Shown: positions 7,357 through 28,703 of the stretch, one piece after another
Layout of the letters: each line of letters begins with the position of its first letter
Position numbering within the stretch: position 1 is the first letter of the stretch
The notes under the pieces: generated by a model
Database searches by the model: none
The model's input: the letters and a program-made list of their open reading frames with translations, nothing else
What the model was told of the DNA's origin: nothing
Made by a program: the position numbers and the translations under genes
Assembly (NCBI RefSeq): GCF_000025925.1
Contig: NC_014033.1
Span: forward strand, 1,110,001-1,142,000
Direction of reading: 5' to 3'
Source: Xylanibacter ruminicola 23
Lineage (GTDB): Bacteria > Bacteroidota > Bacteroidia > Bacteroidales > Bacteroidaceae
Length of the DNA stretch: 32,000 nucleotides

Positions 7357-7614
7357 ATGACAGAGACGATAATATATATACTCATCGGCATCAATGTCCT
7401 AACCTTCTTTGTCTATGGTTGGGACAAGTGGAAAGCCAAGCATGGAAAATGGCGTATATCCGAAGCCACTCTTCTGATGCTGGCTCTTGTTGGCGGCACT
7501 ATAGGTGCACTCTTAGGTATGCAGGTCTGGCACCATAAAACGATGCACTTGAAATTCAAGTACGGGTTGCCATTGATATTGTTGGCTCAAATTGCTTTGA
7601 TTGCTTTATTATAA
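7357..7614 (+). CDS. DUF1294 family small membrane protein
   Basis: The sequence YGWDKWKAKHGKWRISEATLLMLALVGGTIGALLGMQVWHHKT is the DUF1294 signature. I prefer the ATG at 7357 to the TTG at 7333, because the TTG lies inside the promoter box. Confidence 0.75.
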   Translation: MTETIIYILIGINVLTFFVYGWDKWKAKHGKWRISEATLLMLALVGGTIGALLGMQVWHHKTMHLKFKYGLPLILLAQIALIALL

Positions 7615-7907
7615 TGGCTTGGAAACTCAAATATCGCTGTCGAGAATGTGGCTACGAAGCCGAGGTGTACGAAGGCAGAGGACTCTTCCGCCAGGAGATC
7701 CGTGCCGTGTTGTGTCCTGACTGCAAGACCATCCAGAACATTGTGGTGGGTGGGATTATAGCCGACGTGGCACCTTCCTATAGAAGCGAGGTCGGCAGGC
7801 TCTGTTTGCAGTGCGGCAGCGATAAAATCAGAGTGTGGGATGGGCATACCTGTTCCAAGTGCCAGGGTGAGATGGAACAGACTGGCGAGAAAGAGTTTTG
7901 GACTTGA
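7614..7907 (+). CDS. Double zinc-ribbon protein with four CxxC pairs
   Basis: The four pairs are CRECG, CPDCK, CLQCG and CSKCQ. The start overlaps the upstream stop (TAATG), which suggests translational coupling. Confidence 0.6.
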   Translation: MAWKLKYRCRECGYEAEVYEGRGLFRQEIRAVLCPDCKTIQNIVVGGIIADVAPSYRSEVGRLCLQCGSDKIRVWDGHTCSKCQGEMEQTGEKEFWT

Positions 7908-7930
7908 AGACTGACAGAATTTTTGGCCAA

Positions 7931-8011
7931 TGTTTAAGGGAGTTTAAAGAAATGTCAGTCATGTTTAATTGAGTTTAAGGGATTGTCAGTATCGTTTAAG
8001 CGAGTTTAAAA
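7931..8011. repeat. Three 31-bp-phased direct repeats, each GTTTAA-N4-GTTTAA. This is a putative protein-binding array.
   Basis: The three units are TGTTTAAGGGAGTTTAA (7931-7947), TGTTTAATTGAGTTTAA (7962-7978) and CGTTTAAGCGAGTTTAA (7993-8009). Units 2 and 3 are each preceded by TGTCAG. Confidence 0.7.
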
Positions 8012-8154
8012 TCCTTGCCATCTTGACAAGGTAACGAGCGCTTTCTCCTGTAGGCATGTACTTTGCTTTTCAGTAAGTGAAAGCTGAAGCAAATAAGCCG
8101 AAGCGATCAAGAACAATTAAGTTAAACTAAAAATATAATTAGGAGGTAAAAGTT

Positions 8155-8580
8155 ATGTTGAACGGATTAATGAAAAACAACAGTTGGTTCCCAACAATGT
8201 TTGATGATTTCTTTAACACTGATTTTATGCCTCGTGCCAACAGTACAGCACCTGCAGTCAATGTCAAGGAGAGTGAGAAGGCCTACACGATGGAACTTGC
8301 AGCTCCAGGCATTAAGAAAGAATATTGCCGTGTAGGTATCAATGACGAGGGCAACCTCACCATCGCTATTGAGAACAAACAGGAACACAAGCATGAGGAC
8401 AGTCATCGCCATTATCTGCGTCGTGAGTTCAGCTATTCTAACTATGAGCAGAACTACATACTTCCAGATGATGTGGTACGCGACAAGATTTCTGCCAAGG
8501 TTGAGGACGGCATCCTGACCATCACGATGCCGAAGACCGAACCGAAGGAGAAAGTGACGAAAGCCATTGAGGTGTCATAA
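8155..8580 (+). CDS. Small heat-shock protein, Hsp20/alpha-crystallin family
   Basis: The sequence shows an alpha-crystallin domain pattern (PAVNVKESEKAYTMELAAPGIKKEY...REFSYSNYEQNYILPDDV...AKVEDGILTITMPK). An AGGAGG sits 8 nt upstream of the ATG. Confidence 0.85.
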   Translation: MLNGLMKNNSWFPTMFDDFFNTDFMPRANSTAPAVNVKESEKAYTMELAAPGIKKEYCRVGINDEGNLTIAIENKQEHKHEDSHRHYLRREFSYSNYEQNYILPDDVVRDKISAKVEDGILTITMPKTEPKEKVTKAIEVS

Positions 8581-8608
8581 GGATGATGCTTCCTAATATG
8601 TAGAAAAG

Positions 8609-8646
8609 CCCTGGCTTGCTGATGCAGGCCAGGATTTCTTTTTTAT
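8609..8646 (+). terminator. Intrinsic terminator after hsp20
   Basis: The stem pairs CCTGGC with GCCAGG (8609-8632) and is followed by ATTTCTTTTTT. Confidence 0.6.
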
Positions 8647-8698
8647 ATATGTTATGCAAATAGATAGTGATGAAAGTTGAGGTGTGGCGTTTTGCGTA

Positions 8699-8979
8699 TT
8701 GTGCGTATGTATATGGAATGAGCGCACAATGGTGCACACAGTCGCTGCTATTTTGTTAAGTTGTTGATACTTAATGTTTTATGTTTTCTATTTAATTGCA
8801 CAAACCCCTAATATTGTTGTGCATTTAGATACTTATTTGTGCAAATCATTTTATTTGTGCAAGATTTGTGCAGCGTTGAGCTGGATTTGTGCAGAAGTTA
8901 AAGCATCTTTGCAACCGGCTTAGTGCCTGATCTTTAGTAACATACAGATTCCTTGTGCAGTCTTGTGCGGTGTTGTGCA
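8699..8979. repeat. Iteron field of about 9 direct and 2-3 inverted copies of TTGTGC(A/G). This is a candidate replication origin.
   Basis: Direct copies start at 8699, 8817, 8837, 8855, 8866, 8887, 8953, 8963 and 8973. Inverted copies lie at 8723-8729 and 8797-8803. The region is non-coding and lies just downstream of the primase-helicase gene. Confidence 0.7.
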
Positions 8980-9020
8980 TGGATATTCTCGCGCGTGCGC
9001 GCATATAAAGGAAAAATGTA

Positions 9021-9065
9021 AAAGCATAAAAATAGGCCTCGAGTGCTTCACAGCAGTCAGAGGCC
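9021..9065 (-). terminator. Possible terminator of the primase gene
   Basis: The stem pairs GGCCTC (9035-9040) with GAGGCC (9060-9065). On the minus strand it is followed by UAUUUUUAUGCUUUU. The loop is long (19 nt). Confidence 0.35.
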
Positions 9066-9092
9066 CTTCGCTAATGAATAACTAACCAAAAT

Positions 9093-12000
9093 CTAAAAAA
9101 CAATTTCTTCTTTTCTTTCAAGTTCATCTGCCTCAGTGGCAGAGAAATGTTCCAAATGCAATCCGTAACGATTCTGAAGTATTTCGTAGTCGAAACAGAG
9201 ACAGCGGTCAAACTTGTATGCAGTCTGTCCATTAACGGTCTCTTTTATACCATCTTTGATGGAAATAAAGCGTTCGGACGACTTCTGTCCGAGATAAGCG
9301 TTTCCTATCGTCAGGTAATAACGAATTGAGTCACGATCCATGATTATCTTCTTTTCACCTTCACGCTGGGCCAACTGCTTGTACTGAGAAACGAAGTTAA
9401 TCAGACGCAGCATAAGCACGCGATGGTTTTCCTTGAATTCCCTTTCACCTTTGTCCGTCTTTAGCCTTCTCAATACTTTAATCTTAAAGTCGCAATCGAG
9501 ATAAATCTTTCCCTGGTCGTAAAGTGTAGAAAGCGCGTTCCAAAGATTTCCAAGCTCATTGTTAGATGTCACCTCACTGTTCTGGCGTTTAATACCCTCT
9601 ATACATAGCCGCTTAATATCGTCGTACTCAAAAGGCAGATTAAGCGTGGACTTCAGAGTTTTGTAACAAGTTAGCATGATAGACCAGTTACGCCAAAGGC
9701 GGTCTTCCACATTATTACCATCGATGCTGTCACATACCTCATTAGTAACATCGTTATATGTATCATAGAAAGCACTTTCAAACAAGGCTCTGTGTGAGAG
9801 AATCTCCATGGTCAGGTGCTGCAGCCCAAGTTTACGGATATCAGACAACCTATTGAAACGATCCTTTGCTTCGCGGTCATGAACCGTAGAGTCAGTAGGT
9901 AAATAAATCATTCTCGAGAACATCGCGATATCGAGTGTTGGCATCTCCTGTCCGCAGACGATTACACCGCAGTCGACAGGTGTACGCTCAATTTGTTTGC
10001 CGCGGTCCATATCCATTCGTGAGCGGCCGACACCGTCGTACGCCCCTTTGATAATTTCCACAATCCTCATGTCCAGCGTATTCTTATATTCGTCCAGCAG
10101 TACCAGTGAGTTAGCTGCCATCGAGAGCATTTGTGAAAGAGATGGAGCTGTTGTGTTTCTTAAGTTAAGGGGCTTGTCGCCGATTGTAAAGAAACGCATT
10201 AACGTGATGCCCAATTCTGTTTTACCACTTCCCTTCGGGCCAAAGAGATTGAGGATTGGGAAGTTTACCGTGTATGAGGTGATAATATCCCTATGGAGAG
10301 CAGCTAAAAGGTAACAGATACCTATTTTAGCGTTGTCACCGAAGACAGAAGCCATCAGACTGGCCATATCTTTTAATTCTATGCTTGCATGGGTAGATGG
10401 GAGAACAAACTGCCGCTCGAAAGAAAAGTAGCTTGTGTCGGCTGCATAGATTTCCGAGGCCCCCTGCAGATAGTAATTGTCCAAATGAGATTCTGCATCA
10501 TGTAAGTGTACAATTCCCATGGCATCGGCCGGATACCATTCGTTCTGATAGATGCATCCGTTGCCAAAGGTAAAGAAACCGCTGTGATGCCAGCCATACT
10601 GCCGGATGCGAACAGCCGTTTCTGTCTGCTCGAAAAGGTATGTCTTTAGCTTGGTCAATTCTGGCATACCTACCTTCCAGATAAAGTTGCCTATGGACTC
10701 AACCTTCACCATGAACTTAGGCTGTGAGACCAGCTCTTCAGCAGCTAATTCGAGGATACGTGTGGTGCCGTCGATATTCGTAATTTCATAGAGACGGCGT
10801 GAATCATCGATACCCATTACATGATAGAGGGGACGCATCTTGAAATTCGACCATTGCTTCTCGTTACCTTCGTCATCGCGGCTCCAGTAACAGTTGTGAT
10901 CCTCGTAGAAACCATATATAAGCGGGTCGATGCCCGTCCTTTTTGTCGTCGCCTTTGCTTTTTCTTCTGCCCGGCGGTGCTTAGCTTCGTTAACTGCGTT
11001 TTTCCAAAGGCCTTTATGGCCGTTGTGTTGCTTAACCAAGGCATCCAGGAGCGCCTTTTGCGTATATTCATCTTTTTCCAGGATAAGAACATCACATATC
11101 TGTTTGACGATATCAGAAATGTCTGTCTCGGTAGAAGATTTGCGCTCGATGTCATCAAATAGCTTGTTGGCATACCAGAGCACAAAGTCCTCTTCAGCTA
11201 GCAGTTTAACCTGCTCTCTGTTCTGGAAGTAACTGTCTGCATCCTGCTTTCCTCCACCCTCCTCCTCTGGCTTTGGTGGAATCTCCTTGACAGTGACACG
11301 GAAGCCTTCTTCCATGGCTGTACGACCGTTTTTGATGACCGCCTTTATGCCAGGAGCATCAGCATCGGGGATGAAGCACAGTTTTGGATGGAACCGCTTA
11401 AGTGTGTGCAGATGCTCCTTTGTGAGCGCTGTACCCAATGGCGCTACAGTATTTACCACACCAATCTGCTGCATTTTCATAACGTCGGGGCCTCCCTCTA
11501 CCAAGTAGAAGAGCTCCTCGCGTGCCCCCACTTTCATTGCTGTATCCAAGCCGAATAATACGCTTGATTTATGGAATAACAGCGAGTCGCGGCCGTTAAG
11601 ATACTTTTGAACATCCTTATTATCAGAAAGAGTGCGAGCTGTATAGTTAATTACATTGCCCCACCGGTCGCGTACGGGAATCATCAGACGGTCGCGAAAG
11701 AAGGCATATTCGCTTCTATCGTCGCTTTCAGCTATGAGTCCTGCTTCCTTACAAAGTTCCCAGCTCAGGCCTGTTGATTTGATAAAGTCAAAAAAACGTT
11801 TATTACCCTTTGGTGCATAACCCAGTCCTCGCTCCTCGATGGCCTCTTCCGACCAACGATGTTTAGCATAAGCCATCATAGCCTTAGCTTCTGGTGTATC
11901 TTCGTGGAGGCACTTTACGTAGAACTCCTGCACCCGAGAATAGATGACCTGCATGGACTCTTTTTTCTGTTGCTCCGCCAACTCTTCGGGTGTAGGATCC

Positions 12001-12287
12001 TTTTCTTCAAATTCTATATTGAACTTGTTAGCAATTATCTTGCAAGCTTCATAGAAATTGACATGCTCGTGCTCCATGATGAAATGGATGCCGTTGCCTC
12101 CTTTTCCACACACAAAACAATGGCAGATTCCTTTGGCAGGACTCACCATGAAAGAAGGATTCTTGTCGGCATGAAAGGGGCAAATGCCTTTATAATTGAC
12201 GCCAGCTTTCTTTAGCGTGATATAGTCTGATACTATATCAACAATAGGCTGATCGTTTATCTTATCTAATGTTTCAGGCTTTATCAT
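9093..12287 (-). CDS. DnaG-type primase (CHC2 zinc finger plus Toprim) fused to a C-terminal P-loop NTPase or helicase-like domain
   Basis: The CHC2 finger is CPFHADKNPSFMVSPAKGICHCFVCGKGG. The Toprim region is YLVEGGPDVMKM...CFIPDADAPG. The Walker A motif is FGPKGSGKT and the Walker B-like motif is LVLLDEY. I use the ATG at 12287 (MIKPETL), because the ORF-track start at 12302 is a TTG. Confidence 0.85.
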   Translation of the reverse strand: MIKPETLDKINDQPIVDIVSDYITLKKAGVNYKGICPFHADKNPSFMVSPAKGICHCFVCGKGGNGIHFIMEHEHVNFYEACKIIANKFNIEFEEKDPTPEELAEQQKKESMQVIYSRVQEFYVKCLHEDTPEAKAMMAYAKHRWSEEAIEERGLGYAPKGNKRFFDFIKSTGLSWELCKEAGLIAESDDRSEYAFFRDRLMIPVRDRWGNVINYTARTLSDNKDVQKYLNGRDSLLFHKSSVLFGLDTAMKVGAREELFYLVEGGPDVMKMQQIGVVNTVAPLGTALTKEHLHTLKRFHPKLCFIPDADAPGIKAVIKNGRTAMEEGFRVTVKEIPPKPEEEGGGKQDADSYFQNREQVKLLAEEDFVLWYANKLFDDIERKSSTETDISDIVKQICDVLILEKDEYTQKALLDALVKQHNGHKGLWKNAVNEAKHRRAEEKAKATTKRTGIDPLIYGFYEDHNCYWSRDDEGNEKQWSNFKMRPLYHVMGIDDSRRLYEITNIDGTTRILELAAEELVSQPKFMVKVESIGNFIWKVGMPELTKLKTYLFEQTETAVRIRQYGWHHSGFFTFGNGCIYQNEWYPADAMGIVHLHDAESHLDNYYLQGASEIYAADTSYFSFERQFVLPSTHASIELKDMASLMASVFGDNAKIGICYLLAALHRDIITSYTVNFPILNLFGPKGSGKTELGITLMRFFTIGDKPLNLRNTTAPSLSQMLSMAANSLVLLDEYKNTLDMRIVEIIKGAYDGVGRSRMDMDRGKQIERTPVDCGVIVCGQEMPTLDIAMFSRMIYLPTDSTVHDREAKDRFNRLSDIRKLGLQHLTMEILSHRALFESAFYDTYNDVTNEVCDSIDGNNVEDRLWRNWSIMLTCYKTLKSTLNLPFEYDDIKRLCIEGIKRQNSEVTSNNELGNLWNALSTLYDQGKIYLDCDFKIKVLRRLKTDKGEREFKENHRVLMLRLINFVSQYKQLAQREGEKKIIMDRDSIRYYLTIGNAYLGQKSSERFISIKDGIKETVNGQTAYKFDRCLCFDYEILQNRYGLHLEHFSATEADELERKEEIVF

Positions 12288-12308
12288 ATTTTTTTCTTGC
12301 AAAAATAG

Positions 12309-12491
12309 CTATACCTTTTCTTCTTTTGGAAGACATGGCTCTATACGTGGATTTTTCCAAGACTGATGGTGCTTCCGACTGGATTCTTTGAATTTTTCCA
12401 TCAGCTCAGTAGCTAATTCCAGTGAACGAGGGGGCGAAATGACCTCCCGTTCACCTGTCAGTCTGTTGATTGCAGAGATAATATACATCAT
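12309..12491 (-). CDS. Hypothetical small protein
   Basis: 60-aa ORF with an ATG start. Its stop is 22 nt upstream of the primase start, on the same strand. Confidence 0.4.
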   Translation of the reverse strand: MMYIISAINRLTGEREVISPPRSLELATELMEKFKESSRKHHQSWKNPRIEPCLPKEEKV

Positions 12492-12659
12492 ACTACCCTT
12501 TCTAAGGATGTAGCCCCTAGCCTATCTAACACCAGAAGGTAATCGAGGAACAGCTGAAATTCTTCTTCGTTTCTGAATCTCAACTGTTTTTTCTGGCAAC
12601 TCCCATAAAATGTCAGGATTATATGACCTGTATCTGTTTTCTTTTTCTGTATTACCGGC

Positions 12660-12854
12660 TTACTCATTTTCTGTCAACTCAGTGTTAATTGTTACTTCTT
12701 TAATCATAGGGAACCATTCCATTAAAAGCTCAGCCGCCAAGATTGGAGCTGCTTGGCTTCTTCGATAATGAATGATAGCCCTTATATAGTCCTTAATAGT
12801 CCATTGTTCTTGGACCTTAATCTTATCTTTGTATCTTTGAATTCTGATTTTCAT
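12660..12854 (-). CDS. Hypothetical small protein
   Basis: 64-aa ORF in the same operon orientation. Confidence 0.4.
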   Translation of the reverse strand: MKIRIQRYKDKIKVQEQWTIKDYIRAIIHYRRSQAAPILAAELLMEWFPMIKEVTINTELTENE

Positions 12855-12960
12855 TACAAATAATTATTTTTAAATATTCAACATACTGTTTGTTTCTCTC
12901 GCAATAACGTCCGTTGATGCAGTTGCATCCTTGATTGCATGTTCGACATTTATCCGGCAT
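12823..12960 (-). CDS. Possible Cys-rich micro-protein (45 aa)
   Basis: My own translation gives MPDKCRTCNQGCNCINGRYCERNKQYVEYLKIIICNENQNSKIQR. There are five Cys in the first 20 residues. It overlaps the start of the 12660-12854 ORF by 32 nt. It is below the ORF-track size cutoff. Confidence 0.25.
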   Translation of the reverse strand: MPDKCRTCNQGCNCINGRYCERNKQYVEYLKIIICNENQNSKIQR

Positions 12961-13028
12961 AGTAACTTAAAAATATGCCCTGGCTACGGTCTTCCCAGAA
13001 AGTAACTCAGGGACTTTACCAGTTCGAA

Positions 13029-13226
13029 TCATTTTGCTTTCAAGCCTGCAATCAGCTCTTTCTTAAAGAAGTAGAGTCTTCTTCCATCTTTGTGGAATTG
13101 AACCATCTTTCGCTGAACTCTCTTGTACATAGCCTGCACATCAACCTTAAAGAACTCAGCTGCTTCTTTAATAGTCATTGGTTCGTCGCTCATGTCAATT
13201 TCGACTTGTCTGTCTGACTTTCTCAT
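13029..13226 (-). CDS. Excisionase-like / MerR-type HTH DNA-binding protein (HTH_17-like)
   Basis: MTIKEAAEFFKVDVQAMYKRVQRKMVQFHKDGRRLYFFKKELIAGL fits the excisionase-family HTH pattern. There is a 4-nt ATGA overlap with the upstream ORF. Confidence 0.65.
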   Translation of the reverse strand: MRKSDRQVEIDMSDEPMTIKEAAEFFKVDVQAMYKRVQRKMVQFHKDGRRLYFFKKELIAGLKAK

Positions 13227-13510
13227 TGCTTTATCAGTTTACGCCATTCATTTTTATAGTCCGGGTCAGTAAGTTCCTTTCTTCTCTGTGCGAGGGTAAC
13301 ACCGACGAGTATCACACAAAGCTCGTCATAGAGATATTTGGCATGAATAAAGACGCCTTTCTCCTTCCCGATAGATCTATTGAATCGTGTCAACTGAACG
13401 TTGAGAGAAGTTATTGAACCATACGTAGGAAACTTGCCTTTTGCCACATCACCTGGTTTGATTGTCCTGAACCAGTATTCCTTATTCCTAATTTTCTCTG
13501 CCTTATACAT
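13223..13510 (-). CDS. Hypothetical protein, first gene of the minus-strand regulatory/replication operon
   Basis: 95-aa ORF with an ATG start, coupled to the HTH gene. Confidence 0.5.
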   Translation of the reverse strand: MYKAEKIRNKEYWFRTIKPGDVAKGKFPTYGSITSLNVQLTRFNRSIGKEKGVFIHAKYLYDELCVILVGVTLAQRRKELTDPDYKNEWRKLIKQ

Positions 13511-13886
13511 ATTATATATTATATATATTGGCCATTAGTAATGTTGGACTTAAATGCGTTACCTACTCTCTTTCCAGTTGGAATTAATTTTTTGATAATT
13601 TGTTTCATTTCGTAATTTATAATTTTATTAGTTAATATAAGATAGTACAACTCCTTTAGAATTGCGGCACAAAAATATAGCAAATAAATCCAATAGAATT
13701 GCATCTTTTTCAAAAAGGCTACTAACTAACTAAGTCTTTAACATGCGCAACTAACAAAATTAAGAATATAATACATTAATTAACTGTTAACTAACTCACA
13801 AACCAACTTACTGACCCATAAACTTGTCTGCAAATGCTCTCTATATAATAAAATAGGTGTTTTTTGCAAATTATGTAAGAAATATA

Positions 13887-13918
13887 TTTGGTGGTAACAA
13901 AATAAATACGTACCTTTG
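13887..13918 (+). promoter_or_regulatory. Bacteroidota promoter of sRNA copy 1
   Basis: TTTG (13887-13890), a 20-nt spacer, then TACCTTTG (13911-13918). The same arrangement precedes copies 2 and 3. Confidence 0.7.
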
Positions 13919-13924
13919 CATCAA

Positions 13925-14174
13925 CAAATAGTAAACAAACTAACTAACATAGTTCTACGAACTTGTTGGAAGGTTAGAGATATAAAGTACGATATAGAGA
14001 TATCGACATGGCTGCTCATCTTAAGTCGTTTGTTACCAGTTTGAAAAGAATTTGTTACCACATGCGGATTAGTAACAAAATAATTCGCAACTTGCTGATA
14101 ATCAGCATGGGTTCGACTTTCTGCGGGTGTACGAAATCTAAAAAAGGTAGACATTCAAGTCTACCTTTTTTTTT
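13925..14174 (+). ncRNA. Unclassified structured sRNA, long form, copy 1 (about 250 nt)
   Basis: A consensus promoter lies upstream. The terminator is GGTAGAC/GTCTACC (14146-14165) followed by T9. Internal hairpins are CAACAA/UUGUUG (13922-27/13963-68), CGAUAU-AGAG-AUAUCG (13990-14005), UUUGUUAC/GUAACAAA (14051-58/14072-79) and UGCUGA-UAA-UCAGCA (14093-14107). Copy 2 is near-identical but carries a 1-nt indel, which excludes a conserved ORF. Confidence 0.7.
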
Positions 14175-14226
14175 GTACAATCCATAAGAAATCTATATAA
14201 AACTAGCAATTATCCAAAACTTTTCG

Positions 14227-14234
14227 TACCTTTG
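14227..14234 (+). promoter_or_regulatory. -7 box TACCTTTG for cassette-1 genes
   Basis: Exact TAnnTTTG match 24 nt upstream of the ATG at 14258. Confidence 0.5.
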
Positions 14235-14257
14235 CAGCGGTTTAATTAATCTCAATT

Positions 14258-15124
14258 ATGAAGTTTACAATCATAATAACTACATTACTTTTCATGGTCT
14301 GCAACTCGGTCCAAGGACAGCCAATAACCGAGTGGAAGACAGGTCAGATACACGAAACGGGTACCAACGATTTCGATTATCGTCATGTTCGAATTACTCC
14401 TCAAGCCTATCTACATACCATTAGGATTGGAGTTGAATCGCTTGGCGATGGACATTATCACGATTCGCTCATCAGCCGTTTCGATAAAATAGTAGAGTAT
14501 TATCCACAGATAGAAGACACAGTGAGTAACCGCTATTATCATGCAATCTTTAATGGCGACACACTCAGCTATCGAGAACGTAAAACCATATTCATCAATA
14601 CTTATTTAGGCCGCAAGATACTCGAGGTTGAGAGCCTACTGTCTCCACATCAGCGATTTGGCGCTAATGTTTACAGCCTTGATACCGTCCAGATAACTGC
14701 ACTCACCGATTCTATGCGCTACATGAAGACCTACGATAGTCTACTTAACAACGAGCAGACCTGCCTGTTTTATGCCCTTAACTGCTTTCTCGATGCCAAT
14801 GGCATAAATCCAGCGCCAGTCATCACCCGCAACACCAACTTCACCAATGGCAATCAGCTAAACGCCTTCTTCAATCACATTCTTAAGCTTAAGGCAACCT
14901 ATAAATGCCGATATAGCGTGATGAAGAAAGCCAATCTCCCTGATCAGTGCGTGATTGTGTTTCAGGATACTGACAAACAATACATTCATGCGGTATATTA
15001 CCGCAAGGATCGCAACGAGTATTATACCAAAAATGGCTTCTGGTGCCCCGCTGTACTCAAAAGTCTCCGTCCCATAATCAAATGCTATAAACAAGCTGAT
15101 GCATTACTGATATACAGTTTGTAA
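14258..15124 (+). CDS. Secreted protein with a possible transglutaminase/papain-like cysteine peptidase core in its C-terminal half
   Basis: The signal peptide is MKFTIIITTLLFMVCNSVQGQ. The segment QTCLFYALNCFLDANGINPAPV resembles the C-x2-[FY]-A...G-I-P-A-R core of transglutaminase-like peptidases. A candidate His sits in YIHAVYY. The region has lower GC than its surroundings. Confidence 0.45.
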   Translation: MKFTIIITTLLFMVCNSVQGQPITEWKTGQIHETGTNDFDYRHVRITPQAYLHTIRIGVESLGDGHYHDSLISRFDKIVEYYPQIEDTVSNRYYHAIFNGDTLSYRERKTIFINTYLGRKILEVESLLSPHQRFGANVYSLDTVQITALTDSMRYMKTYDSLLNNEQTCLFYALNCFLDANGINPAPVITRNTNFTNGNQLNAFFNHILKLKATYKCRYSVMKKANLPDQCVIVFQDTDKQYIHAVYYRKDRNEYYTKNGFWCPAVLKSLRPIIKCYKQADALLIYSL

Positions 15125-15153
15125 TAATGTTAAAAAGTAATGAACCATAGATT

Positions 15154-16089
15154 ATGAATAGGAAAGCCTTTTTCGCTACACTTCTTACTATCATTGCTAT
15201 AACTGCAGATGCTCAACAGAGATTTTTCGTAAAGGATAGTCTTACACAAGATCCCGTAGCATTTACAAGTGTATGGTTCGGAAATAATACAGGAGGATAT
15301 ACTAATGAATCTGGAATGATAGTGATTCCTGAAGGAACAAAACAGATACGGTTATCACATATCTGCTATGAGACGAAAAATATATCAATCGTTGACTGCA
15401 GTCGAAATACGGTATTACTTGTCCCCAAGAGCGTTATTCTCGAAGATGTCTGCATTAGTGCTAAGTCTCCTAAAAGAATGAAAACTACAACAGTTGGCAT
15501 GATAAAGGAGAAAACACAGATATGCCATAGAGGTTCTACCGGATTTGAGATGGCTTTATTCATTCCGTACGATAGTACATGGACGAATGCTCCTTACATT
15601 CATTCCATTCTGGCTAATCTCGACTATTCTACACACTGGCTTGCATTTACAATTATCAAGACTCCAATTTATGCTACTCTTCGCTTTGACCTTCGCCTGC
15701 CTGATTCCCAAACTGGTTCACCAAGAAACGAGTCAATTATAAATGGTGGTATTATTATTCAACCAAGTCAAAGGGTCAGCAAAGAAGGAGTAAAACTCGC
15801 CACTCCTTTGGTATTCCCGAAAACAGGTGTATTCGTTGTGATGGAATGGATAACCACAGCAGCTATTTCCGAGTCTCAAAACCTTGTGCCAGCTATTAAC
15901 ATGACACTGAGTATTAAAGAGAATCAAACCTGGAATAAGAAAGCCTTTCGTGGTAAAGACTGGATGCGGGAAGAAGACGAACCAATCAATCAGGACAAAT
16001 CAGCAAGAGAATTATATAAGGGTAAAACTCCTTGCGCCAAGTTGGGCTTGGAAATTTCAAAATATGAAGTATTTCAATCAGACAATTGA
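15154..16089 (+). CDS. Secreted protein containing a carboxypeptidase-regulatory-like (CarboxypepD_reg) domain
   Basis: A signal peptide is followed by FFVKDSLTQDPVAFTSVWFGNNTGGYTNESGMIVIPEGTKQIRLSHICYETKNISI. This matches the CarboxypepD_reg beta-sandwich pattern. Confidence 0.6.
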   Translation: MNRKAFFATLLTIIAITADAQQRFFVKDSLTQDPVAFTSVWFGNNTGGYTNESGMIVIPEGTKQIRLSHICYETKNISIVDCSRNTVLLVPKSVILEDVCISAKSPKRMKTTTVGMIKEKTQICHRGSTGFEMALFIPYDSTWTNAPYIHSILANLDYSTHWLAFTIIKTPIYATLRFDLRLPDSQTGSPRNESIINGGIIIQPSQRVSKEGVKLATPLVFPKTGVFVVMEWITTAAISESQNLVPAINMTLSIKENQTWNKKAFRGKDWMREEDEPINQDKSARELYKGKTPCAKLGLEISKYEVFQSDN

Positions 16090-16118
16090 CAAGTTTTGCA
16101 AGAATAACATAAAAAACG

Positions 16119-16158
16119 TTCACAAATTTGTGAATATCAAAATAATATTGTATCTTTG
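16119..16158 (+). promoter_or_regulatory. higBA promoter with a perfect 16-bp palindromic operator
   Basis: The palindrome TTCACAAATTTGTGAA (16119-16134) covers the -33 TTTG (16127-16130). The -7 box TATCTTTG lies at 16151-16158, 20 nt downstream. Confidence 0.6.
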
Positions 16159-16176
16159 CCCCCAAAATAAGAAAAT

Positions 16177-16494
16177 ATGTTAGTTATCTTTGAAAGAGAT
16201 TATCTAAAAGAGCTCTATGATAATGGTCAGGCCAGCGATAAGAAGCATCGCTTCCAGCCACAGATAGTCAGAAAGTACACTCGCGTCATCGACTTGATGA
16301 ATGAGGTACAGAATGTACAGACGCTGACTCAATATGGCAGTCTTCACTACGAGAAACTTCATGGTGATAAGGCAGGACTTTCATCTGTCAGAGTGAACGA
16401 CCAATACCGAATAGAGTTTCGTGAAATTTTAAAAGGCGAGCAAACAATCGCCGAAGTAGTAAGTATAACAGAATTGTCGAACCATTATAAATAA
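16177..16494 (+). CDS. higB: HigB-like toxin of the RelE/ParE superfamily (plasmid maintenance system killer type)
   Basis: KLHGDKAGLSSVRVNDQYRIEFRE matches the HigB pattern L.G.r.G..S.rvn.q.Ri.F. It is followed 9 nt later by a HigA-type HTH antitoxin gene (toxin-first order). Confidence 0.75.
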   Translation: MLVIFERDYLKELYDNGQASDKKHRFQPQIVRKYTRVIDLMNEVQNVQTLTQYGSLHYEKLHGDKAGLSSVRVNDQYRIEFREILKGEQTIAEVVSITELSNHYK

Positions 16495-16502
16495 GGTACA
16501 TT

Positions 16503-16847
16503 ATGAAACATATAGAAGGCGTAAACGACAACATGATTGCCAACAACCTGGAGCCACATTACTTGACTCATCCTGGTGAGGTAATTAAAGACGAACTGGA
16601 GTTTCGTGGTATTAGTCAGCGACGACTGGCTAAAGAAATAGGTATTCCTGCAAGCCAACTTAACGAGGTGCTTAACGGCAAGCGTTCGCTAAGTGCAGAA
16701 TTAGCTCTGCTGATAGGCAAGGCACTTGATCTAGATGCAGCTCCCCTACTCTCACTTCAGATGAAATACAATCTCCTATCGGCCAAACGTAATAAATCGT
16801 TTATACAGCGCTTAAAGGAGATTCCTAAAATCGCTGCAGTATTCTAA
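16503..16847 (+). CDS. higA: HigA antitoxin, XRE-family HTH
   Basis: HPGEVIKDELEFRGISQRRLAKEIGIPASQLNEVLNGKRSLSAELALLIGKAL is the canonical HigA motif. Confidence 0.8.
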   Translation: MKHIEGVNDNMIANNLEPHYLTHPGEVIKDELEFRGISQRRLAKEIGIPASQLNEVLNGKRSLSAELALLIGKALDLDAAPLLSLQMKYNLLSAKRNKSFIQRLKEIPKIAAVF

Positions 16848-16863
16848 AAAAGTGGGTTCGATA

Positions 16864-16895
16864 TTTGGTGGTAACAAAAAAAATACCTATCTTTG
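16864..16895 (+). promoter_or_regulatory. Promoter of sRNA copy 2
   Basis: TTTG (16864-16867), a 20-nt spacer, then TATCTTTG (16888-16895). Confidence 0.65.
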
Positions 16896-16900
16896 CATCA

Positions 16901-17151
16901 ACAAATAGTAAGCAAACTAACTAACATAGTTCTACGAACTTGTTGGAAAGTTAGAAATACTAAGTACGATATAGAGATATCGACAGGCTGCTTATCTTAA
17001 GTCGTTTGTTACCAGTTTGAAAAGAATTTGTTACCACATGCGGATTAGTAACAAAACAATTCGCAACTTGCTGATAATCAGCATGGGTTCGACTTTCTGC
17101 GGGTGTACAAAGAATAAAAGAGATGAGTTCAAAGCTTATCTCTTTTTTTTT
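16901..17151 (+). ncRNA. Unclassified structured sRNA, long form, copy 2
   Basis: It aligns with copy 1 from 16861 to 17108. I count about 9 differences in the ~210-nt transcribed part, including one 1-nt deletion. Its terminator has an unrelated sequence: a 9-bp stem at 17119-17143 plus T9. Confidence 0.7.
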
Positions 17152-17169
17152 ATACAGAATTAAACAATC

Positions 17170-17301
17170 ATGAGTATGAATAAGATAGTAGACGAAAAGT
17201 TTAGCGATGAAACGATTGCTGCCATTAATGAGGCTAAGTCAGGTAAGAACCCCAATAAGGTTTATGATAGTGTTGATGAACTCTTTGCTGATATGGATTG
17301 A
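17170..17301 (+). CDS. Small antitoxin-like protein (43 aa)
   Basis: My own translation gives MSMNKIVDEKFSDETIAAINEAKSGKNPNKVYDSVDELFADMD. It is directly followed by, and overlaps, the remnant of a YafQ/RelE-type toxin gene. It is below the ORF-track cutoff. Confidence 0.45.
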   Translation: MSMNKIVDEKFSDETIAAINEAKSGKNPNKVYDSVDELFADMD

Positions 17302-17362
17302 CGAAGAGATCGACACCATTGAACTTGTAAGACTTGGCTCCCACTCTGAGCTATTCAAATAA
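17285..17362 (+). pseudogene. 3' remnant of a YafQ/RelE-family toxin gene. Only the last ~25 codons are retained.
   Basis: The frame reads LLIWIDEEIDTIELVRLGSHSELFK-stop. This resembles the conserved C-terminus of YafQ-type toxins (..LLIY......L.LVRTGSHSDLF). There is no room for the N-terminal ~65 residues, because the upstream sequence is occupied by the antitoxin-like ORF in another frame. Confidence 0.5.
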
Positions 17363-17405
17363 GAGTATTTATATCAATTACAATCAATAATAAATCCATC
17401 AATAA

Positions 17406-19796
17406 ATGAAGAAACTTTTATCAACTATTGTGCTGGCCATTGTTGCAACTGCCGGGTGGGCACAAACTCGAATATGGAATAACATTGTTACAGGCTATTC
17501 CAATGTACCATTTGTTAAAATAACCAAGGTTGTACTGAGTGCCGACAGCACTGAGGTGTTCATGCATTTCGACATGCCAGAACGTGCTGCAGGCCAGGAA
17601 GGTGTATTGGCTGCGAAATCGCTACTCCAGGCCGACGGTAAGACCTACGAAGCAAAGAACGCCGTAGGTATGAAACTGGGGCAGCCCGTCAAGATACCTA
17701 AGGACTGTAAGGTAGACTTCTCGCTGGTGTTCGATGCCCTGCCAGCATCTACATGGCTGTTTTCTATAAGTGATCCCGGCATATGGATAATTAATGCTGT
17801 ACGCGATGCTGATGCGAATGCTGATGTTGATGTAACCCCCGTTGGCATCACCGACACCTATTGGCGCAACACGCTTACGGGCGACTGGTTGATAGGATTC
17901 GCCCAGCACCACGTTATATATAATAATAAGGTGTGGGATATCCTGAATCAGACCGAGCAGAAGGACACCTACGTGCTTACTCTTAACGACGGACTAACCA
18001 TCAAGGTGGGCAAACTCAAGAAAGGCATCCGTCCCATCACCATCGGTACCGGAAAGGCCATTGCCTGCAATCCGATAACCCAAGAAGCCCTACCCGACTA
18101 TCCTACCAAAGACACTCGCAAGGGATTTGTTGACAATGGCTATCGTGAGGGCGACAGCGTAACCATCGTAGGCTGGCTGAAGGATATGCCCGAGCAAGCT
18201 TGGAAACAGAGCGGCGAATTTGAAGTCTGGACAAGTAATTTTATCACCGATAAAACAGAAAGCTTTACAGCAAAGCTCGACTCGCTAGGTAGATTCACCC
18301 TCCGTATGCCCCTGCTCAATTCTGCAACCGTTACGCTCGCCCCGCGCCAATCATGGGTACATCCTGTATTAGAGCCAGGAAAGACCTACTTCTTCCTCAA
18401 CGACTTCAATACTGGTCAGAAACTGTTTATGGGCGATGACGTACGCCTGCAAAACGAGCTTGTGGCTTGTCCTGCAACATGGCCGGAGACACGCATCAAT
18501 CCAGGCGAGAGCGCCATGCAATTCATGGAACGCGCGAATAAAGTCTTTGATGCAATCATAACCAAGATGCAGGCGGATATCACTCATCGCCCCAACCTAT
18601 CGCAGCGCTTTATTGATTATATTAAAGGTCTGTGTATGGCTGGGCAGGGCTATTCGATGATGCAGGCCCGCTTTGATGTACCAGGCCGAAGTCTGCCCAA
18701 GGAGTATATGGATTATGTCAACACCAAGTTGTGGCAGCCCGCACCTAAACCCTATACGCTCTATTCTGAATTCCCGCGATTTATGCGCGACTATCTTGAC
18801 CAGCTGAGAGATGAGCGCCACTCTGTGAGCATTGATCCTTACAGAATAACGTTGAACGACGGTGCCTATCCCATCATTTTGCGCCAGGCTAGGGCTGATG
18901 GCAAGGTATCGATTACCGACGAGGAGCTTGCCCTAATGGAGCGTTATGCAGTGGAATTTCACAAGGAGTATGCCAAACAAGCCAAGAACCAGAAGATAGA
19001 TAGTCTAAACATTGATTTGGCTGGTACCGATTTAGATAAGCTTGGCATTGCGGAGCAGTATCTTGCCATTATGGAGCGTCCTGATGTGAAGAAGGAGATA
19101 GAGCAAGAATTCTCGTTGATAGATTTGTATTACCAAAAGCAGGCTATCGAATCGGCAACTACCGATAGGGCATTGATTGATCTGGCCTTGGCTCGCAAAT
19201 TCTATTGGAAGCTTAACTCGTTCCGCAAGTCGCTTGACCCTTCTGATTTGAATTTCGCCAATAAAGAAATCAAGTTGGCATCGGCACTAAACTTTGTTTT
19301 GACCGAAAACGATAAGTATGTAGCTTTGGAGCATCAGGACTTGGCTAATGCAGCCAGTCTGCGACCGTCAACCGATGTGGCGAACATGACCGATGGCGAG
19401 AAGATGCTGCGTAAGATCATCGAACCCTATAAAGGTCGCGTCATCTATCTCGACGTGTGGGGCACATGGTGCGGCCCTTGCAAGCAGAAACTCAAGGACT
19501 CGTGGAAAGTAAAAGAGGCACTCAAGGATTACGATATCGTGTATCTTTACCTATGTAATGGCAGCAGCGATGAATCATGGAAGAATGTGATTAAGGAGTA
19601 CAATCTGACAGGACCAAACTGCGTTCACTATAATCTGCCAAAAGAACAGCAGAGTGCTATCGAGCATTACCTGAGTGTAAACAGCTTCCCCACATATAAG
19701 ATTATCGATAAGCAGGGAAACATTCACGACCTAGGTTGGCTCGACGATCAAAATCTGGAGGCATTCAAACAGACTATGGGCAAGTTCTGCAAGTAA
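17406..19796 (+). CDS. Large secreted protein with a C-terminal TlpA-like thioredoxin-fold domain
   Basis: The signal peptide is MKKLLSTIVLAIVATAGWAQ. The C-terminus reads VIYLDVWGTWCGPCKQKL...FPTYKIIDKQG, giving a WCGPC active site and the cis-Pro region of TlpA/ResA-type thiol-disulfide oxidoreductases. I do not recognise the N-terminal ~650 aa. Confidence 0.7.
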   Translation: MKKLLSTIVLAIVATAGWAQTRIWNNIVTGYSNVPFVKITKVVLSADSTEVFMHFDMPERAAGQEGVLAAKSLLQADGKTYEAKNAVGMKLGQPVKIPKDCKVDFSLVFDALPASTWLFSISDPGIWIINAVRDADANADVDVTPVGITDTYWRNTLTGDWLIGFAQHHVIYNNKVWDILNQTEQKDTYVLTLNDGLTIKVGKLKKGIRPITIGTGKAIACNPITQEALPDYPTKDTRKGFVDNGYREGDSVTIVGWLKDMPEQAWKQSGEFEVWTSNFITDKTESFTAKLDSLGRFTLRMPLLNSATVTLAPRQSWVHPVLEPGKTYFFLNDFNTGQKLFMGDDVRLQNELVACPATWPETRINPGESAMQFMERANKVFDAIITKMQADITHRPNLSQRFIDYIKGLCMAGQGYSMMQARFDVPGRSLPKEYMDYVNTKLWQPAPKPYTLYSEFPRFMRDYLDQLRDERHSVSIDPYRITLNDGAYPIILRQARADGKVSITDEELALMERYAVEFHKEYAKQAKNQKIDSLNIDLAGTDLDKLGIAEQYLAIMERPDVKKEIEQEFSLIDLYYQKQAIESATTDRALIDLALARKFYWKLNSFRKSLDPSDLNFANKEIKLASALNFVLTENDKYVALEHQDLANAASLRPSTDVANMTDGEKMLRKIIEPYKGRVIYLDVWGTWCGPCKQKLKDSWKVKEALKDYDIVYLYLCNGSSDESWKNVIKEYNLTGPNCVHYNLPKEQQSAIEHYLSVNSFPTYKIIDKQGNIHDLGWLDDQNLEAFKQTMGKFCK

Positions 19797-19819
19797 TGAG
19801 AATCATTTTCATTCATAAA

Positions 19820-19851
19820 GGGAGTTAGAAATTGTTCTAACTCCCTTTTTT
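19820..19851 (+). terminator. Intrinsic terminator after the TlpA-like gene
   Basis: The 11-bp stem pairs GGGAGTTAGAA with TTCTAACTCCC and is followed by TTTTTT. Confidence 0.75.
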
Positions 19852-19905
19852 ACTAAATGGGTACAATATAATAACGTCTCTAAAATCAAAAAACTAAGTT
19901 CAATA

Positions 19906-19937
19906 TTTGGTGATAACAAAATAAATACGTACCTTTG
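19906..19937 (+). promoter_or_regulatory. Promoter of sRNA copy 3
   Basis: TTTG (19906-19909), a 20-nt spacer, then TACCTTTG (19930-19937). Confidence 0.65.
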
Positions 19938-19942
19938 CATCA

Positions 19943-20019
19943 ACAAATAGTAAACAAACTAACTAACATAGTTCTACGAACTTGTTGGAAGAAAGCAGAC
20001 CTTTAAGGCCTGCTTTTTT
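19943..20019 (+). ncRNA. Short form of the sRNA (about 77 nt): the 5' module plus a private terminator
   Basis: 19941-19991 is identical to 13921-13971 of copy 1. Similarity ends after CTTGTTGGAAG. Next comes the hairpin GCAGACC/GGCCTGC (19995-20013) plus T6. Confidence 0.65.
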
Positions 20020-20027
20020 CGTATATA

Positions 20028-20840
20028 TTAGTTCTCCACTTTATACCCTTTTACGATGATTGGTGGGCAGGCTGGAAGTTTTTTCATCTTACCCTTTACG
20101 GCGTTGCGGGCGTAGCTGCTTTTAAAGTTGGCTGGGAAGAATATACCACCATTACCTTTATGGTCAACCACACTCACACTGATACAATATTTCTTTTTAC
20201 CCTTAAGCACGATGTGTTCATCGGGACTTACGCTGAATTTCTTGCCATCGTCTGCGGGTGATATATGTTTGTATATGGGTTTGTTCATGATGTTGATAAA
20301 CTTTTTGCCCTGTAGCTCATAGACATTGAAACTAAGCACGCACTCATCATATTTACATTTAGCTATGGTCAGAAGCATCTCACTTAGTACATAGTCCTTG
20401 CTGTTCTTGAATATCGGCCCCCACTCCGTGTCGCCGTTTATGTTTCCTATGAATCCTACTGTCCCTATTCTTACAAGCGAACGCCCCGATAACGTGTTCG
20501 TTTTGTTTTTCTTGCCGATTACCACCTCAGCCAGTTCTATCACTTTATCCTTCAGTACTACCTTCAGATCATTTCCTTTGCTGTAGGTGGCATAAGGCAC
20601 GATAGCATCTTGATACGACACATGCGTGAACGATAAGTCCTTATTTCGTCCCGCAGGTATGGTGAGCGTAAAGTGCCCCTTCGCGTCGGAAATCACGCCC
20701 ACACTATCCTCATCAAAACCAATGCTGACATATTCTACAGCCTCGCCGCGTTCGTTTACTACGTTGCCTCGTACAATGGTCTGAGCACTCGCTGTAATCA
20801 TCAACTGCATAAATACAGTTAAGAGTATGGTCTTCTTCAT
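20028..20840 (-). CDS. Secreted CarboxypepD_reg-like domain protein
   Basis: MKKTILLTVFMQLMITASAQ is followed by TIVRGNVVNERGEAVEYVSIGFDEDSVGVISDAKGHFTLTIPAGRNKDLSFTHVSYQ. I chose the internal ATG at 20840. Confidence 0.65.
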   Translation of the reverse strand: MKKTILLTVFMQLMITASAQTIVRGNVVNERGEAVEYVSIGFDEDSVGVISDAKGHFTLTIPAGRNKDLSFTHVSYQDAIVPYATYSKGNDLKVVLKDKVIELAEVVIGKKNKTNTLSGRSLVRIGTVGFIGNINGDTEWGPIFKNSKDYVLSEMLLTIAKCKYDECVLSFNVYELQGKKFINIMNKPIYKHISPADDGKKFSVSPDEHIVLKGKKKYCISVSVVDHKGNGGIFFPANFKSSYARNAVKGKMKKLPACPPIIVKGYKVEN

Positions 20841-21013
20841 TTTTTTGTAATTATAAGTGTTGCAAATTCGCATGCAAAAGTAGTTATTATCCCTGAATTA
20901 CTCGTCGTTTTTCAAATTCTTTGTGATATGTTTTGATAGTTTCAGGTTTATGATGATGTTTTACCACGTTTTATTTGTACCTTTGCAGCCCGATATGTCT
21001 ATTACAATATGAT

Positions 21014-24674: not shown

Positions 24675-25850
24675 CTATTCTCTTCTTAAATTATAAGGAT
24701 ACGACAGTTTCCAAGGTGAATCTTCGAGTTTGAACTTCTTGGCGCCCTCTTGTGTGGCAGGAGTGCGTACAAGGGGAATGTCGGAGAGGTCCATCAGGTA
24801 ATAATAATAGGCGAACAGCTGGGTTAAGCCGCCTTTTACCGAATAGCGTGCCGAGATATATTCGGGTGTGATGGCATCGTTGCCACGTATGGCTTCTACC
24901 TCTTTATTGTAGGCTATCAGTTTGGCTATGGCATTTTTATAGGATGCTAAGGTTGCTGTTGGCGATTTCTGAATCCAGCGCTGTAAAAGCTTGCGGTTGT
25001 ACTGGGCTACAATCTCGCCTTCGCGCTTACGTCCCTCTATAAACCAGTCGGGTGTTTTCTTGGGGTTTTCGGCTGCTACGCGGGCACGCAGTTCGTCTTC
25101 GATGGCCTGCACCTGCTTGCACTCAGCCGACCCGAACCACTCTTTAATTATCTGCTTTACCAGTGGTGAATAAATATTGTAATAGAATCGTGGTGCACCG
25201 CCCTGTTTCTCGAGCAGCCACGATCCTCTGTCAAAATCTGCAGCCTCGGTATGAAGCACAATGTCGGTATTCATTTTGTAAAGCGATGTAATAACAGCTT
25301 TCATCTTGTCGAGCACCTTATTATATTGGGGCCATTTCTTGTCTACGTGAATGGTATCGAACGGCTGACCTTTGCGCGCTTTCTTGGCAATCTCCATTCG
25401 TAGCTTATTAAATCTGTCGCTTTCTGCTTTCAGTTCGGGTTCGGGCTCGTAATTATTCACGCCCTCGTTCAGTGGTCCAACTACACATACTGTATAGCGG
25501 GTCATTTTCTCACGTGTGTCAACTTCTGATGGATTAGGCAGTACGGGCAGATTCTTGTAAGCTTCCTCGTATGTGCTATACGAGTATTTCTCTACCAATG
25601 CCTTATGCTCCTCTTTACTGATTTTAAAGTCGGTTTGCAAGCCATTTCCTTCTTTGGCGGTATAGTCCCAGAACATGTGTCCACCCAGGTTCTGTGCGTA
25701 GTTACGCTCCTCGGGTTCTACATAAAGAATGTTAGTTTTTGTTGTTGTACCTTTGCCTTTGCTTTTGGCTTGGGTTTTCTTCTGTGCCTGCATGGGAGCA
25801 GCTCCCGCTAACAGTAGAGCAGCAACACAGATGTAGAGATGATGTTTCAT
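24675..25850 (-). CDS. Secreted hypothetical protein (391 aa)
   Basis: The signal peptide is MKHHLYICVAALLLAGAAPMQAQ. It is a long uninterrupted ORF with a promoter box upstream (plus-strand CAAAGATA near 25900). Confidence 0.6.
   Translation of the reverse strand: MKHHLYICVAALLLAGAAPMQAQKKTQAKSKGKGTTTKTNILYVEPEERNYAQNLGGHMFWDYTAKEGNGLQTDFKISKEEHKALVEKYSYSTYEEAYKNLPVLPNPSEVDTREKMTRYTVCVVGPLNEGVNNYEPEPELKAESDRFNKLRMEIAKKARKGQPFDTIHVDKKWPQYNKVLDKMKAVITSLYKMNTDIVLHTEAADFDRGSWLLEKQGGAPRFYYNIYSPLVKQIIKEWFGSAECKQVQAIEDELRARVAAENPKKTPDWFIEGRKREGEIVAQYNRKLLQRWIQKSPTATLASYKNAIAKLIAYNKEVEAIRGNDAITPEYISARYSVKGGLTQLFAYYYYLMDLSDIPLVRTPATQEGAKKFKLEDSPWKLSYPYNLRRE

Positions 25851-28630: not shown

Positions 28631-28703
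<73 letters not shown>

Follow-up and report, generated by a model that had tools for sequence, protein, structure and literature searches.

Xylanibacter ruminicola 23 carries a sequence unit in three direct copies that had been characterized, in a preliminary description made from the DNA alone, as a promoter-plus-small-RNA (sRNA) unit delimiting two cargo cassettes in an integron-like layout. We analysed the 32,000 nt of contig NC_014033.1 (positions 1,110,001 to 1,142,000) in which these copies lie. By exact protein matches it was also located in GCA_019973335.1 (contig BPTT01000001.1, about 1,805,441-1,837,440; locus tags PRMUPPPA20_). This whole stretch is referred to as the window, positions are given in window coordinates, and numbers such as L034 denote the loci or contigs compared. 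At the locus, two tRNA-Lys genes are followed by a P' arm with six TTGTTACC repeats, an integrase gene and a prophage that ends in copy 1; islet 1 then ends in copy 2 and islet 2 in copy 3, and behind copy 3 stand a native terminator and the chromosome. The window was found to be a tandem array (prophage, islet 1, islet 2) at a single tRNA-Lys attachment (att) site. Each boundary of the array is a P arm with a 13-bp core, the last one having been crippled by a deletion.

A repeat search and MAFFT alignment placed the copies, all on the + strand, at 13884-14132, 16861-17108 and 19903-19991, as the preliminary description had them. A 35-mer from their common 5' part occurs exactly three times (at 13936, 16913 and 19955), with none expected from 100 shuffles. 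Copies 1 and 2 are about 91-95% identical across ~249 nt, from 13884/16861 to 14132/17108, and past these positions they enter different hairpin-plus-T-run terminators, again as first described. Copy 3 matches copy 1 over its first 89 nt only, at 98.9% rather than full identity, with a third terminator thereafter. In the alignment all units part from one another directly past GGGTGTAC, and in the islet-type copies the common sequence reaches ~18 nt further left (to 16843 for copy 2). In terms of the array, copy 1 comprises the P arm of the prophage attR (13884-14119) and the core TCTGCGGGTGTAC (14120-14132), at which the P arm of the prophage meets the P' side of islet 1. Copy 2 is the P arm and core of islet 1, with the core at 17096-17108, and copy 3 is a remnant of the islet 2 attR in which the P arm is reduced to its promoter and hairpin. 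An open reading frame (ORF) of 77 amino acids (aa) at 13921-14154 (-) lies wholly within copy 1 and is a called gene in a public assembly (L001, 6516-6749); it is probably spurious, because the same stretch of copy 2 contains a frame-disrupting indel.

The 13 nt that end the long unit, TCTGCGGGTGTAC, are identical to the 3' end of tRNA-Lys(CTT), and an intact gene for this tRNA is found 1.5 kb upstream of a unit in a metagenome contig (L007). The last part of the long unit (cttgctgataatcagcatgggttcgactttctgcgggtgtac) corresponds to a diverged anticodon stem, T-loop and acceptor 3' strand of tRNA-Lys(CTT), the anticodon-stem/T-loop remnant lying at about 14090-14119 in copy 1. Taken together, the 3' end of the unit and the copy 2 terminator align with a real tRNA-Lys(CTT) from T-loop to terminator at 81.5% identity over 65 nt (E 3.6e-12), and the terminator of copy 2 and that behind the real gene are homologous. 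Judging from the sequence, only the 3' ~45 nt of the unit can convincingly be regarded as tRNA-derived. A complete pseudo-tRNA, to which MAFFT pointed by aligning the last ~75 nt of the unit to the whole tRNA, was rejected: it was called neither by ARAGORN nor by the Rfam tRNA model, and its T-stem was unpaired by eye. A 3' end that matches a tRNA, with divergence right after GGGTGTAC, is the signature of an att site at a tRNA 3' end.

Integration at tRNA 3' ends is found in temperate phages and in Bacteroides elements such as NBU1 and NBU2, and in a lambda-type attP the core is flanked by arms with arm-type integrase sites. It had been stated that no recombinase is in view. This holds within the window, where no recombinase gene was detected; a 391-aa ORF at 24675-25850 was considered as a hidden integrase and dismissed, having no Pfam match and no similarity to the 391-aa integrase of a related phage. 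A leftward walk through two contigs (L003 and L024, to -18.6 kb) met no tRNA, unit or integrase, and the left end of the prophage was reached via the chromosomal flank gene encoding a DUF5687 protein. There, 46 kb to the left of the window and in the same genome record, a tyrosine integrase gene stands beside intact tRNA-Lys genes. The order at this attL locus (L040; prophage left end about -46877 to -45431) is DUF5687, two tRNA-Lys genes, core, phage terminator, six direct TTGTTACC repeats and the gene for the 381-aa integrase. The attL core ends at -46877 and the integrase gene extends from -46576 to -45431, which gives a prophage of ~61.0 kb up to the core of copy 1. Phage_integrase and Phage_int_SAM_5 domains were recognized by Pfam in the 99%-identical protein of X. 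ruminicola D31d, SAM_5 being marked weak for L040. The integrase of the window genome is PRMUPPPA20_14220, a member of the 90% cluster of the D31d integrase; other sources name it 'Prophage PRU01, site-specific recombinase', and a limited literature search returned no paper on 'PRU01'. Strain D31d (L038) shows the same order, down to the six direct TTGTTACC repeats and the 381-aa integrase, with a 649-aa gene and then a 1340-aa tape-measure gene downstream. In related phages, whose primases are 59-77% identical, the tyrosine integrase lies between the late genes and the early/primase operon, which is where the joined att arms of this prophage would lie.

The 8-mer TTGTTACC links the two ends of the prophage. 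It was observed nine times in the 9-kb attL locus (~0.3 expected) and seven times in the window (~1 expected), six of the seven falling within copies 1 and 2. Repeats of this type are located at 13893(-), 14030(+), 14052(+) and 14071(-) in copy 1 and at 16870(-), 17006(+), 17028(+) and 17047(-) in copy 2. They are putative arm-type integrase binding sites. An earlier idea, that the TTTGTTACC repeats serve as replication iterons for the neighbouring 1069-aa primase, was dropped on finding six copies directly upstream of the integrase gene.

Comparison loci were collected as contigs encoding exactly the 281-aa protein of the window and later the flanking DUF5687 protein, which gave 18 further loci. 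Their backbone consists of FtsK, LolA_2, DUF5687, a promoter, two tRNA-Lys(CTT) genes, a terminator, the convergent 281-aa gene and a gene for a HAD hydrolase. Flanks were near-identical in the loci compared, and the cargo between the copies varied by strain. At four loci (L030, L033, L046, L051) the site is empty: the tRNA is followed directly by taagaaacagaaagcagacctttaaggcctgctttttt, and no unit is present. Two further loci (L034, L037) have the tRNA directly joined to aaagaataaaagagatgag, the terminator of copy 2, followed by the antitoxin/YafQ genes, the 796-aa gene, a complete long unit and the native terminator. In L034 there is no prophage, and islet 2 is bounded by a tRNA/P' junction on one side and a unit/native terminator junction on the other. 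Islet 2 was also found with a short unit of the copy 3 type (L036, L047, L050, L052) and with no unit left (L035). Variant cargo occupies the site in L032, L048 and L054, including an islet with a 537-aa thioredoxin-type variant (L032) and one of toxin-antitoxin (TA) genes only (L048). An islet with a DKNYY gene and HicAB lies between tRNA-Lys and the unit in L007, a term1-like terminator stands directly behind the tRNA in L053, and a terminator resembling the phage P' one occurs together with a DKNYY gene at the site in L049. Islet 1 is missing from D31d and L005, each of which has the prophage end with a single unit, and islet 2 is missing from L005 too. Near-identical strains have either one or two tandem tRNA-Lys(CTT) genes at the site (L046, L049, L050, L052 and L053 versus L030, L047 and L051).

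We take the repeat unit to be the P arm and core of the att site of a ~61-kb 'PRU01'-type temperate phage, whose tyrosine integrase targets the TCTGCGGGTGTAC that ends the second of the tandem tRNA-Lys(CTT) genes, and put the probability of this reading at about 0.9. A direct repeat of the tRNA 3' end marks the boundary distal to the intact tRNA, the intact target tRNA and an integrase gene mark the other boundary of the same element, and relatives have the site unoccupied with the junction exactly at the core. The architecture is a known one, tandem accretion at a tRNA att site, of which the locus is a new and well-resolved example; it is not a new integron-like system.

Several observations weigh against this reading or limit it. 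For this strain, neither an excised circle nor an attP junction nor an attB free of phage was observed. The assignment of the TTGTTACC repeats as arm sites draws on a sequence pattern, and in the most diverged unit (L032) the repeat that overlaps the promoter is not conserved while the promoter itself is, so that this repeat may not be a protein site. The P' sides of the islets are little more than a terminator and contain no TTGTTACC, and the islets may not be capable of independent movement; the 61-kb prophage together with islets may also exceed packaging capacity, which would limit islet transfer in cis. Finally, two alleles of the unit are distributed the wrong way round. One was found in the prophage-end units of D31d, L005 and L006 and in copy 2 of the window, the other (the islet type) in copies 1 and 3, L007, L034 and L037, which is the inverse of the outcome of a single core crossover from a D31d-like ancestor. 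The swapped alleles imply additional gene conversion or homologous exchange among the unit copies.

The same swap would fit a single crossover near the left edge of the unit, and in this respect it favours the model of the preliminary description, in which an ancestral short RNA gene served as the scaffold and cassettes were inserted within its 5' module in a recombinase-less, integron-like manner. The 5' module and canonical promoter common to three direct copies, the stable predicted folds of the unit RNA (z-scores of -4.6 to -5.6 relative to shuffles) and the lack of an integrase in the window are all in keeping with that model. What it does not accommodate is the state of the site in other strains. 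A short RNA gene cannot be ancestral where empty sites hold two tRNA-Lys genes and a terminator; neither the single short nor the single long copy that had been anticipated at such a site was found. The terminator of copy 3, thought to be private to it, is taagaaacagaaagcagacctttaaggcctgctttttt of the empty sites, i.e., the native terminator of the tRNA-Lys operon and the B' side of attB (19992-20027, +), which lies directly behind the second tRNA-Lys gene there. Copy 3 lacks unit positions of about 90-249, that is, three repeats, the tRNA remnant and the core, as well as 10 nt of flank, and its junction at 19991|19992 has AG microhomology. Copy 3 is a long-unit attR with an internal deletion, because other strains (L034, L037, L032) hold the undeleted long unit at the same position and empty sites hold none. 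The units moreover diverge at the tRNA-Lys core instead of in the 5' module, an integrase with matching repeats is present at the other end of the array, and the unit is found at a single locus. The serial insertion of independent cargo at one site, which was part of the preliminary model, is upheld; the crossover point is the 13-bp tRNA-Lys core, not the shared 5' module. We consider the sRNA scaffold as such very improbable.

The distribution of the unit was examined more widely. A 22-mer from its 5' hairpin had one match among 185,579 species-representative genomes, namely X. ruminicola D31d, at a single locus, and matched three metagenomic contigs. A BLAST comparison of the unit with phage records gave no match, and exact-pattern scans of viral contigs (IMG/VR) with the 5' hairpin, the 3' end of the unit and the tRNA-Lys end gave none either; the att arms are taken to be absent from IMG/VR because all three scans were empty. 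Every genome and contig in which the unit was found has it at this one locus only. Confinement to the locus and identical content in all related strains, which the preliminary description had named together as speaking against its model, come apart here: the former applies, but the content between the copies differs by strain. The end of an insertion sequence or miniature inverted-repeat transposable element was also considered and rejected, the copies being direct rather than inverted and limited to a single locus among the species-representative genomes. The direct orientation of the repeats and their similar spacing (2977 and 3042 bp) could likewise suggest a simple local tandem duplication followed by divergence. 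The cargo between the copies is unrelated, however, the boundaries coincide with the tRNA core, and other strains have each block on its own or lack it, which leaves local duplication with next to no probability.

Islet 1 (14133-16860, +) lies between the core of copy 1 and that of copy 2. It starts with an element-supplied terminator at about 14140-14174 (+), which is followed, all on the + strand, by a 288-aa gene with its own promoter (14258-15124), a 311-aa gene (15154-16089) whose CarboxypepD_reg-like match is weak and below the Pfam cutoff, a HigB toxin gene (16177-16494) and the gene for an HTH antitoxin, putatively HigA (16503-16847). The 288-aa and 311-aa products are the two secreted proteins of this islet. 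The antitoxin gene ends 13 nt before copy 2, in accordance with the preliminary description, and GC is somewhat lower across 14-17 kb (0.38-0.41), as had also been noted. Islet 2 ('E796'; 17109-19902, +) lies between copy 2 and copy 3 in the window; in L034 and L037 it is enclosed by the tRNA or copy 2 on one side and by a long unit on the other. Its P' terminator (17113-17150, +) is homologous to the one right behind tRNA-Lys in strains that have islet 2 only. On the + strand there follow a truncated antitoxin gene (17170-17301), the remnant of a YafQ toxin gene (17207-17362), the gene for the 796-aa protein, which has a thioredoxin-like C-terminus (17406-19796), and the terminator hairpin of that gene (19808-19857); an intact version of the TA pair is present in L037 and L050. 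The Pfam assignments agree with the cargo content first described. TA modules adjoin the islet boundaries, and Pfam identified neither a recombinase nor other integration or transfer genes among the islet proteins. To the right of the att site, the first backbone gene is the chromosomal gene for the 281-aa CarboxypepD_reg-like protein (20028-20873, -), with the HAD hydrolase gene next.

We infer that the islets are integrase-less elements akin to cis-mobilizable elements (CIMEs), which keep a full P arm and core at their right end. That an islet begins with a terminator would follow from the mode of insertion, because an element that replaces the 3' flank of a tRNA gene must supply one. A full P arm and core without P' repeats is what cis-mobilization would need: the phage attL, with its complete P' arm, could recombine with a distal unit, whereby the phage would be excised together with one or more islets. 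A later excision via the proximal unit would leave an islet behind in the arrangement tRNA/terminator, cargo, unit/native terminator, and this predicted state is exactly that of L034. Alternatively, the islets may have originated by decay of full-size relatives; this route is equally compatible with the data, and the two are not mutually exclusive.

The decay route can be taken further, to a scenario in which full-size related elements integrated successively and decayed in place, the islets being immobile and never carried by the phage. Such an origin is the standard one proposed for CIMEs (PMC5704250). The missing TTGTTACC repeats on the P' sides of the islets, the TA pair of islet 2, decayed in the window and further deleted in D31d, and the loss of att sequence in copy 3 and L035 would all be expected from it. 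It is less easily reconciled with the finding that at least five different islets share a minimal architecture (terminator, one or two cargo genes, TA pair, full P arm and core), with the precise presence or absence of islets at the core among strains with identical DUF5687 and 281-aa flanking proteins, or with a P arm that is still 93-98% conserved. We regard purely fossil islets as possible, at rather less than even odds.

Erosion of the array is visible in D31d (L004), which lacks 201 bp of the TA remnant (window 17200-17400) and a 1129-bp block (19799-20927). The block takes in the terminator, copy 3 and the 281-aa gene, and its junction shows 3 bp of microhomology (ATG). Both losses are ordinary deletions. 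In L005 (600-660), the terminator after the prophage-end unit resembles the phage P' terminator by eye, the HAD gene comes next and the usual promoter region is gone; this arrangement could be a deletion or a misassembly. An inverted unit was seen right behind the tRNA terminator in L055 (10777-11079). The sequence across the join is perfectly palindromic about the terminator hairpin, with a core on either side, and most likely reflects a fold-back of de Bruijn assembly rather than a real inversion.

A Bacteroidota promoter had been reported for each copy, and the full motif TTTG-N20-TAnnTTTG was found in all three. In copy 1 the -33 TTTG is at 13887-13890 and the -7 box TACCTTTG at 13911-13918, upstream of a hairpin formed by an imperfect palindrome (13945-13968). 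A transcript of ~250 nt (~77 nt for copy 3) probably starts from this P-arm promoter and ends at the terminator past the core. We interpret the promoter as a by-product or an accessory feature of the att arm, not as a recombination substrate, and it is unneeded to explain the array.

The arm could, however, have a second function, the unit also encoding a ~250-nt sRNA of the phage or islets, or providing an outward promoter that reads towards the integrase in the circular form only. The promoter is present in every copy and was retained in the most diverged unit (L032) while the flanking bases changed; a terminator always stands behind the core; and the unit shares its orientation with the tRNA genes and the integrase gene. 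In the circular form the P-arm promoter would, hypothetically, face the integrase gene. No TAnnTTTG promoter was detected in the stretch from the P' terminator to the start codon of the integrase gene (L040, 3745-4000), and the only canonical promoter upstream of the integrase is that of the tRNA-Lys operon. A strong terminator would nevertheless separate the P-arm promoter from the integrase gene in the joined form, and no homologue of the unit is known outside this locus. Covariation was not observed either among units that are 91-98% alike, the sole change in the hairpin (L032) being in the loop. As the preliminary description had surmised, the RNA matches no known family: Rfam 15 gave no match over 13600-20200 at the gathering score or at E<=10, its only matches being two unrelated tRNAs elsewhere in the window, and ARAGORN called no tRNA in the units. 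On balance a dual function of the arm seems unlikely. Still more doubtful is a combined role, in which the arm carries a promoter-driven RNA or a circular-form promoter and also acts as a handle by which the phage integrase picks up TA-stabilised islets, carries them and deposits them at tRNA-Lys.

In the window, the DNA preceding copy 1 is phage-like throughout and is read in the leftward direction. It represents the right-hand 14 kb of the ~61-kb PRU01-like prophage (1-13883, -; Pfam and PHROGs), with genes for a head maturation protease (4301-5398, -), a 1069-aa DnaG-type primase (9093-12302, -) and, among small early genes, a 65-aa HTH_17 protein with an excisionase-type fold (13029-13226, -). 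The leftward early promoter of the prophage is near 13755-13762 (-). A gene for HSP20 (8155-8580) and neighbouring small genes form a block (7327-8702) that is absent from an otherwise 97%-identical prophage in contig L006 and looks like a moron-type indel. The prophage interior (L024, 10451-13264 and 20056-20441; about -8.2 to -18.6 kb in window coordinates) encodes NgoPII-type and HaeIII-type restriction enzymes, a DNA methylase and a WYL-domain protein, together a defence cluster. A DKNYY-family gene is present among the head genes (5509-6180); a ~75%-identical relative is cargo at tRNA-Lys in L007 (1159-1776), and Pfam annotates a DKNYY gene at the same tRNA-adjacent position in L049 (11266-11883). 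The occurrence of DKNYY genes both in the prophage and beside tRNA-Lys suggests that cargo moves between phage and islets. Elsewhere in the window, tandem tRNA-Thr(CGT) and tRNA-Gly(CCC) genes at 28631-28809 are unrelated to the array.

Compared with lambda-type sites and with NBU1 and NBU2, the locus has in common a short core that equals a tRNA 3' end, an 8-bp motif on both arms (with putative integrase binding), an integrase gene beside the intact tRNA, and a 3' end and terminator that are supplied by the element and serve the tRNA. A difference is that a complete promoter of the host type, directed towards the core, is present in the arm as well. Chromosomal integrons, to which the locus had been likened, also grow by serial insertion of cassettes at one site through a tyrosine recombinase, and TA modules are found among their cassettes. 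Here, in contrast, there is no attI/Pc platform and, as already noted in the preliminary description, no attC-type imperfect palindrome at the cassette ends; promoters and terminators come with the cassettes themselves, what is repeated is an att arm of 250 bp that includes a fragment of a tRNA, and the integrase belongs to a prophage and lies 61 kb away from the first repeat.

Tandem accretion and CIMEs are established and were defined for the ICESt1/ICESt3-related islands of Streptococcus thermophilus (PMC5704250). In both cases att repeats separate several elements that follow one another head-to-tail at the 3' end of a single tRNA or other gene, the integrase is carried by one autonomous element, its neighbours keep att sites without integration genes, and composite excision would be possible in principle. 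In the present array the autonomous role falls to a tailed prophage, in a rumen species of Bacteroidota, rather than to an integrative and conjugative element, and the islets are very small (0.7-3 kb), with a full ~250-bp P arm and almost no P' arm. In Dehalococcoides, tandem islands are bounded by repeats of the ssrA 3' end; many of them lack an integration module and have been proposed to be cis-mobilizable (PMC3146451). There too a series of islands, each bounded by the 3'-end repeat, lies downstream of one small RNA gene and varies in content by strain. Those islands, however, involve a serine recombinase and a 20-bp ssrA repeat, whereas a tyrosine integrase, a 13-bp tRNA-Lys core and a long conserved arm are found in X. 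ruminicola.

The analysis resolves an apparent sRNA-delimited cassette array into a well-understood mechanism. It defines the att site of a prophage from a major rumen bacterium by exact coordinates and core, and names its integrase and candidate arm sites. A tRNA-Lys hotspot is documented at which close strains differ by small TA-bearing islets. If the islets are carried by the phage in cis, the locus would be a compact natural system for accretion and mobilization in Bacteroidota, and it might provide a tool for site-specific integration in Prevotella, which is genetically hard to manipulate. If, beyond this, the arm is a handle for islet transfer, rumen Prevotella would possess a cassette platform run by a phage, integron-like in its working although not an integron.

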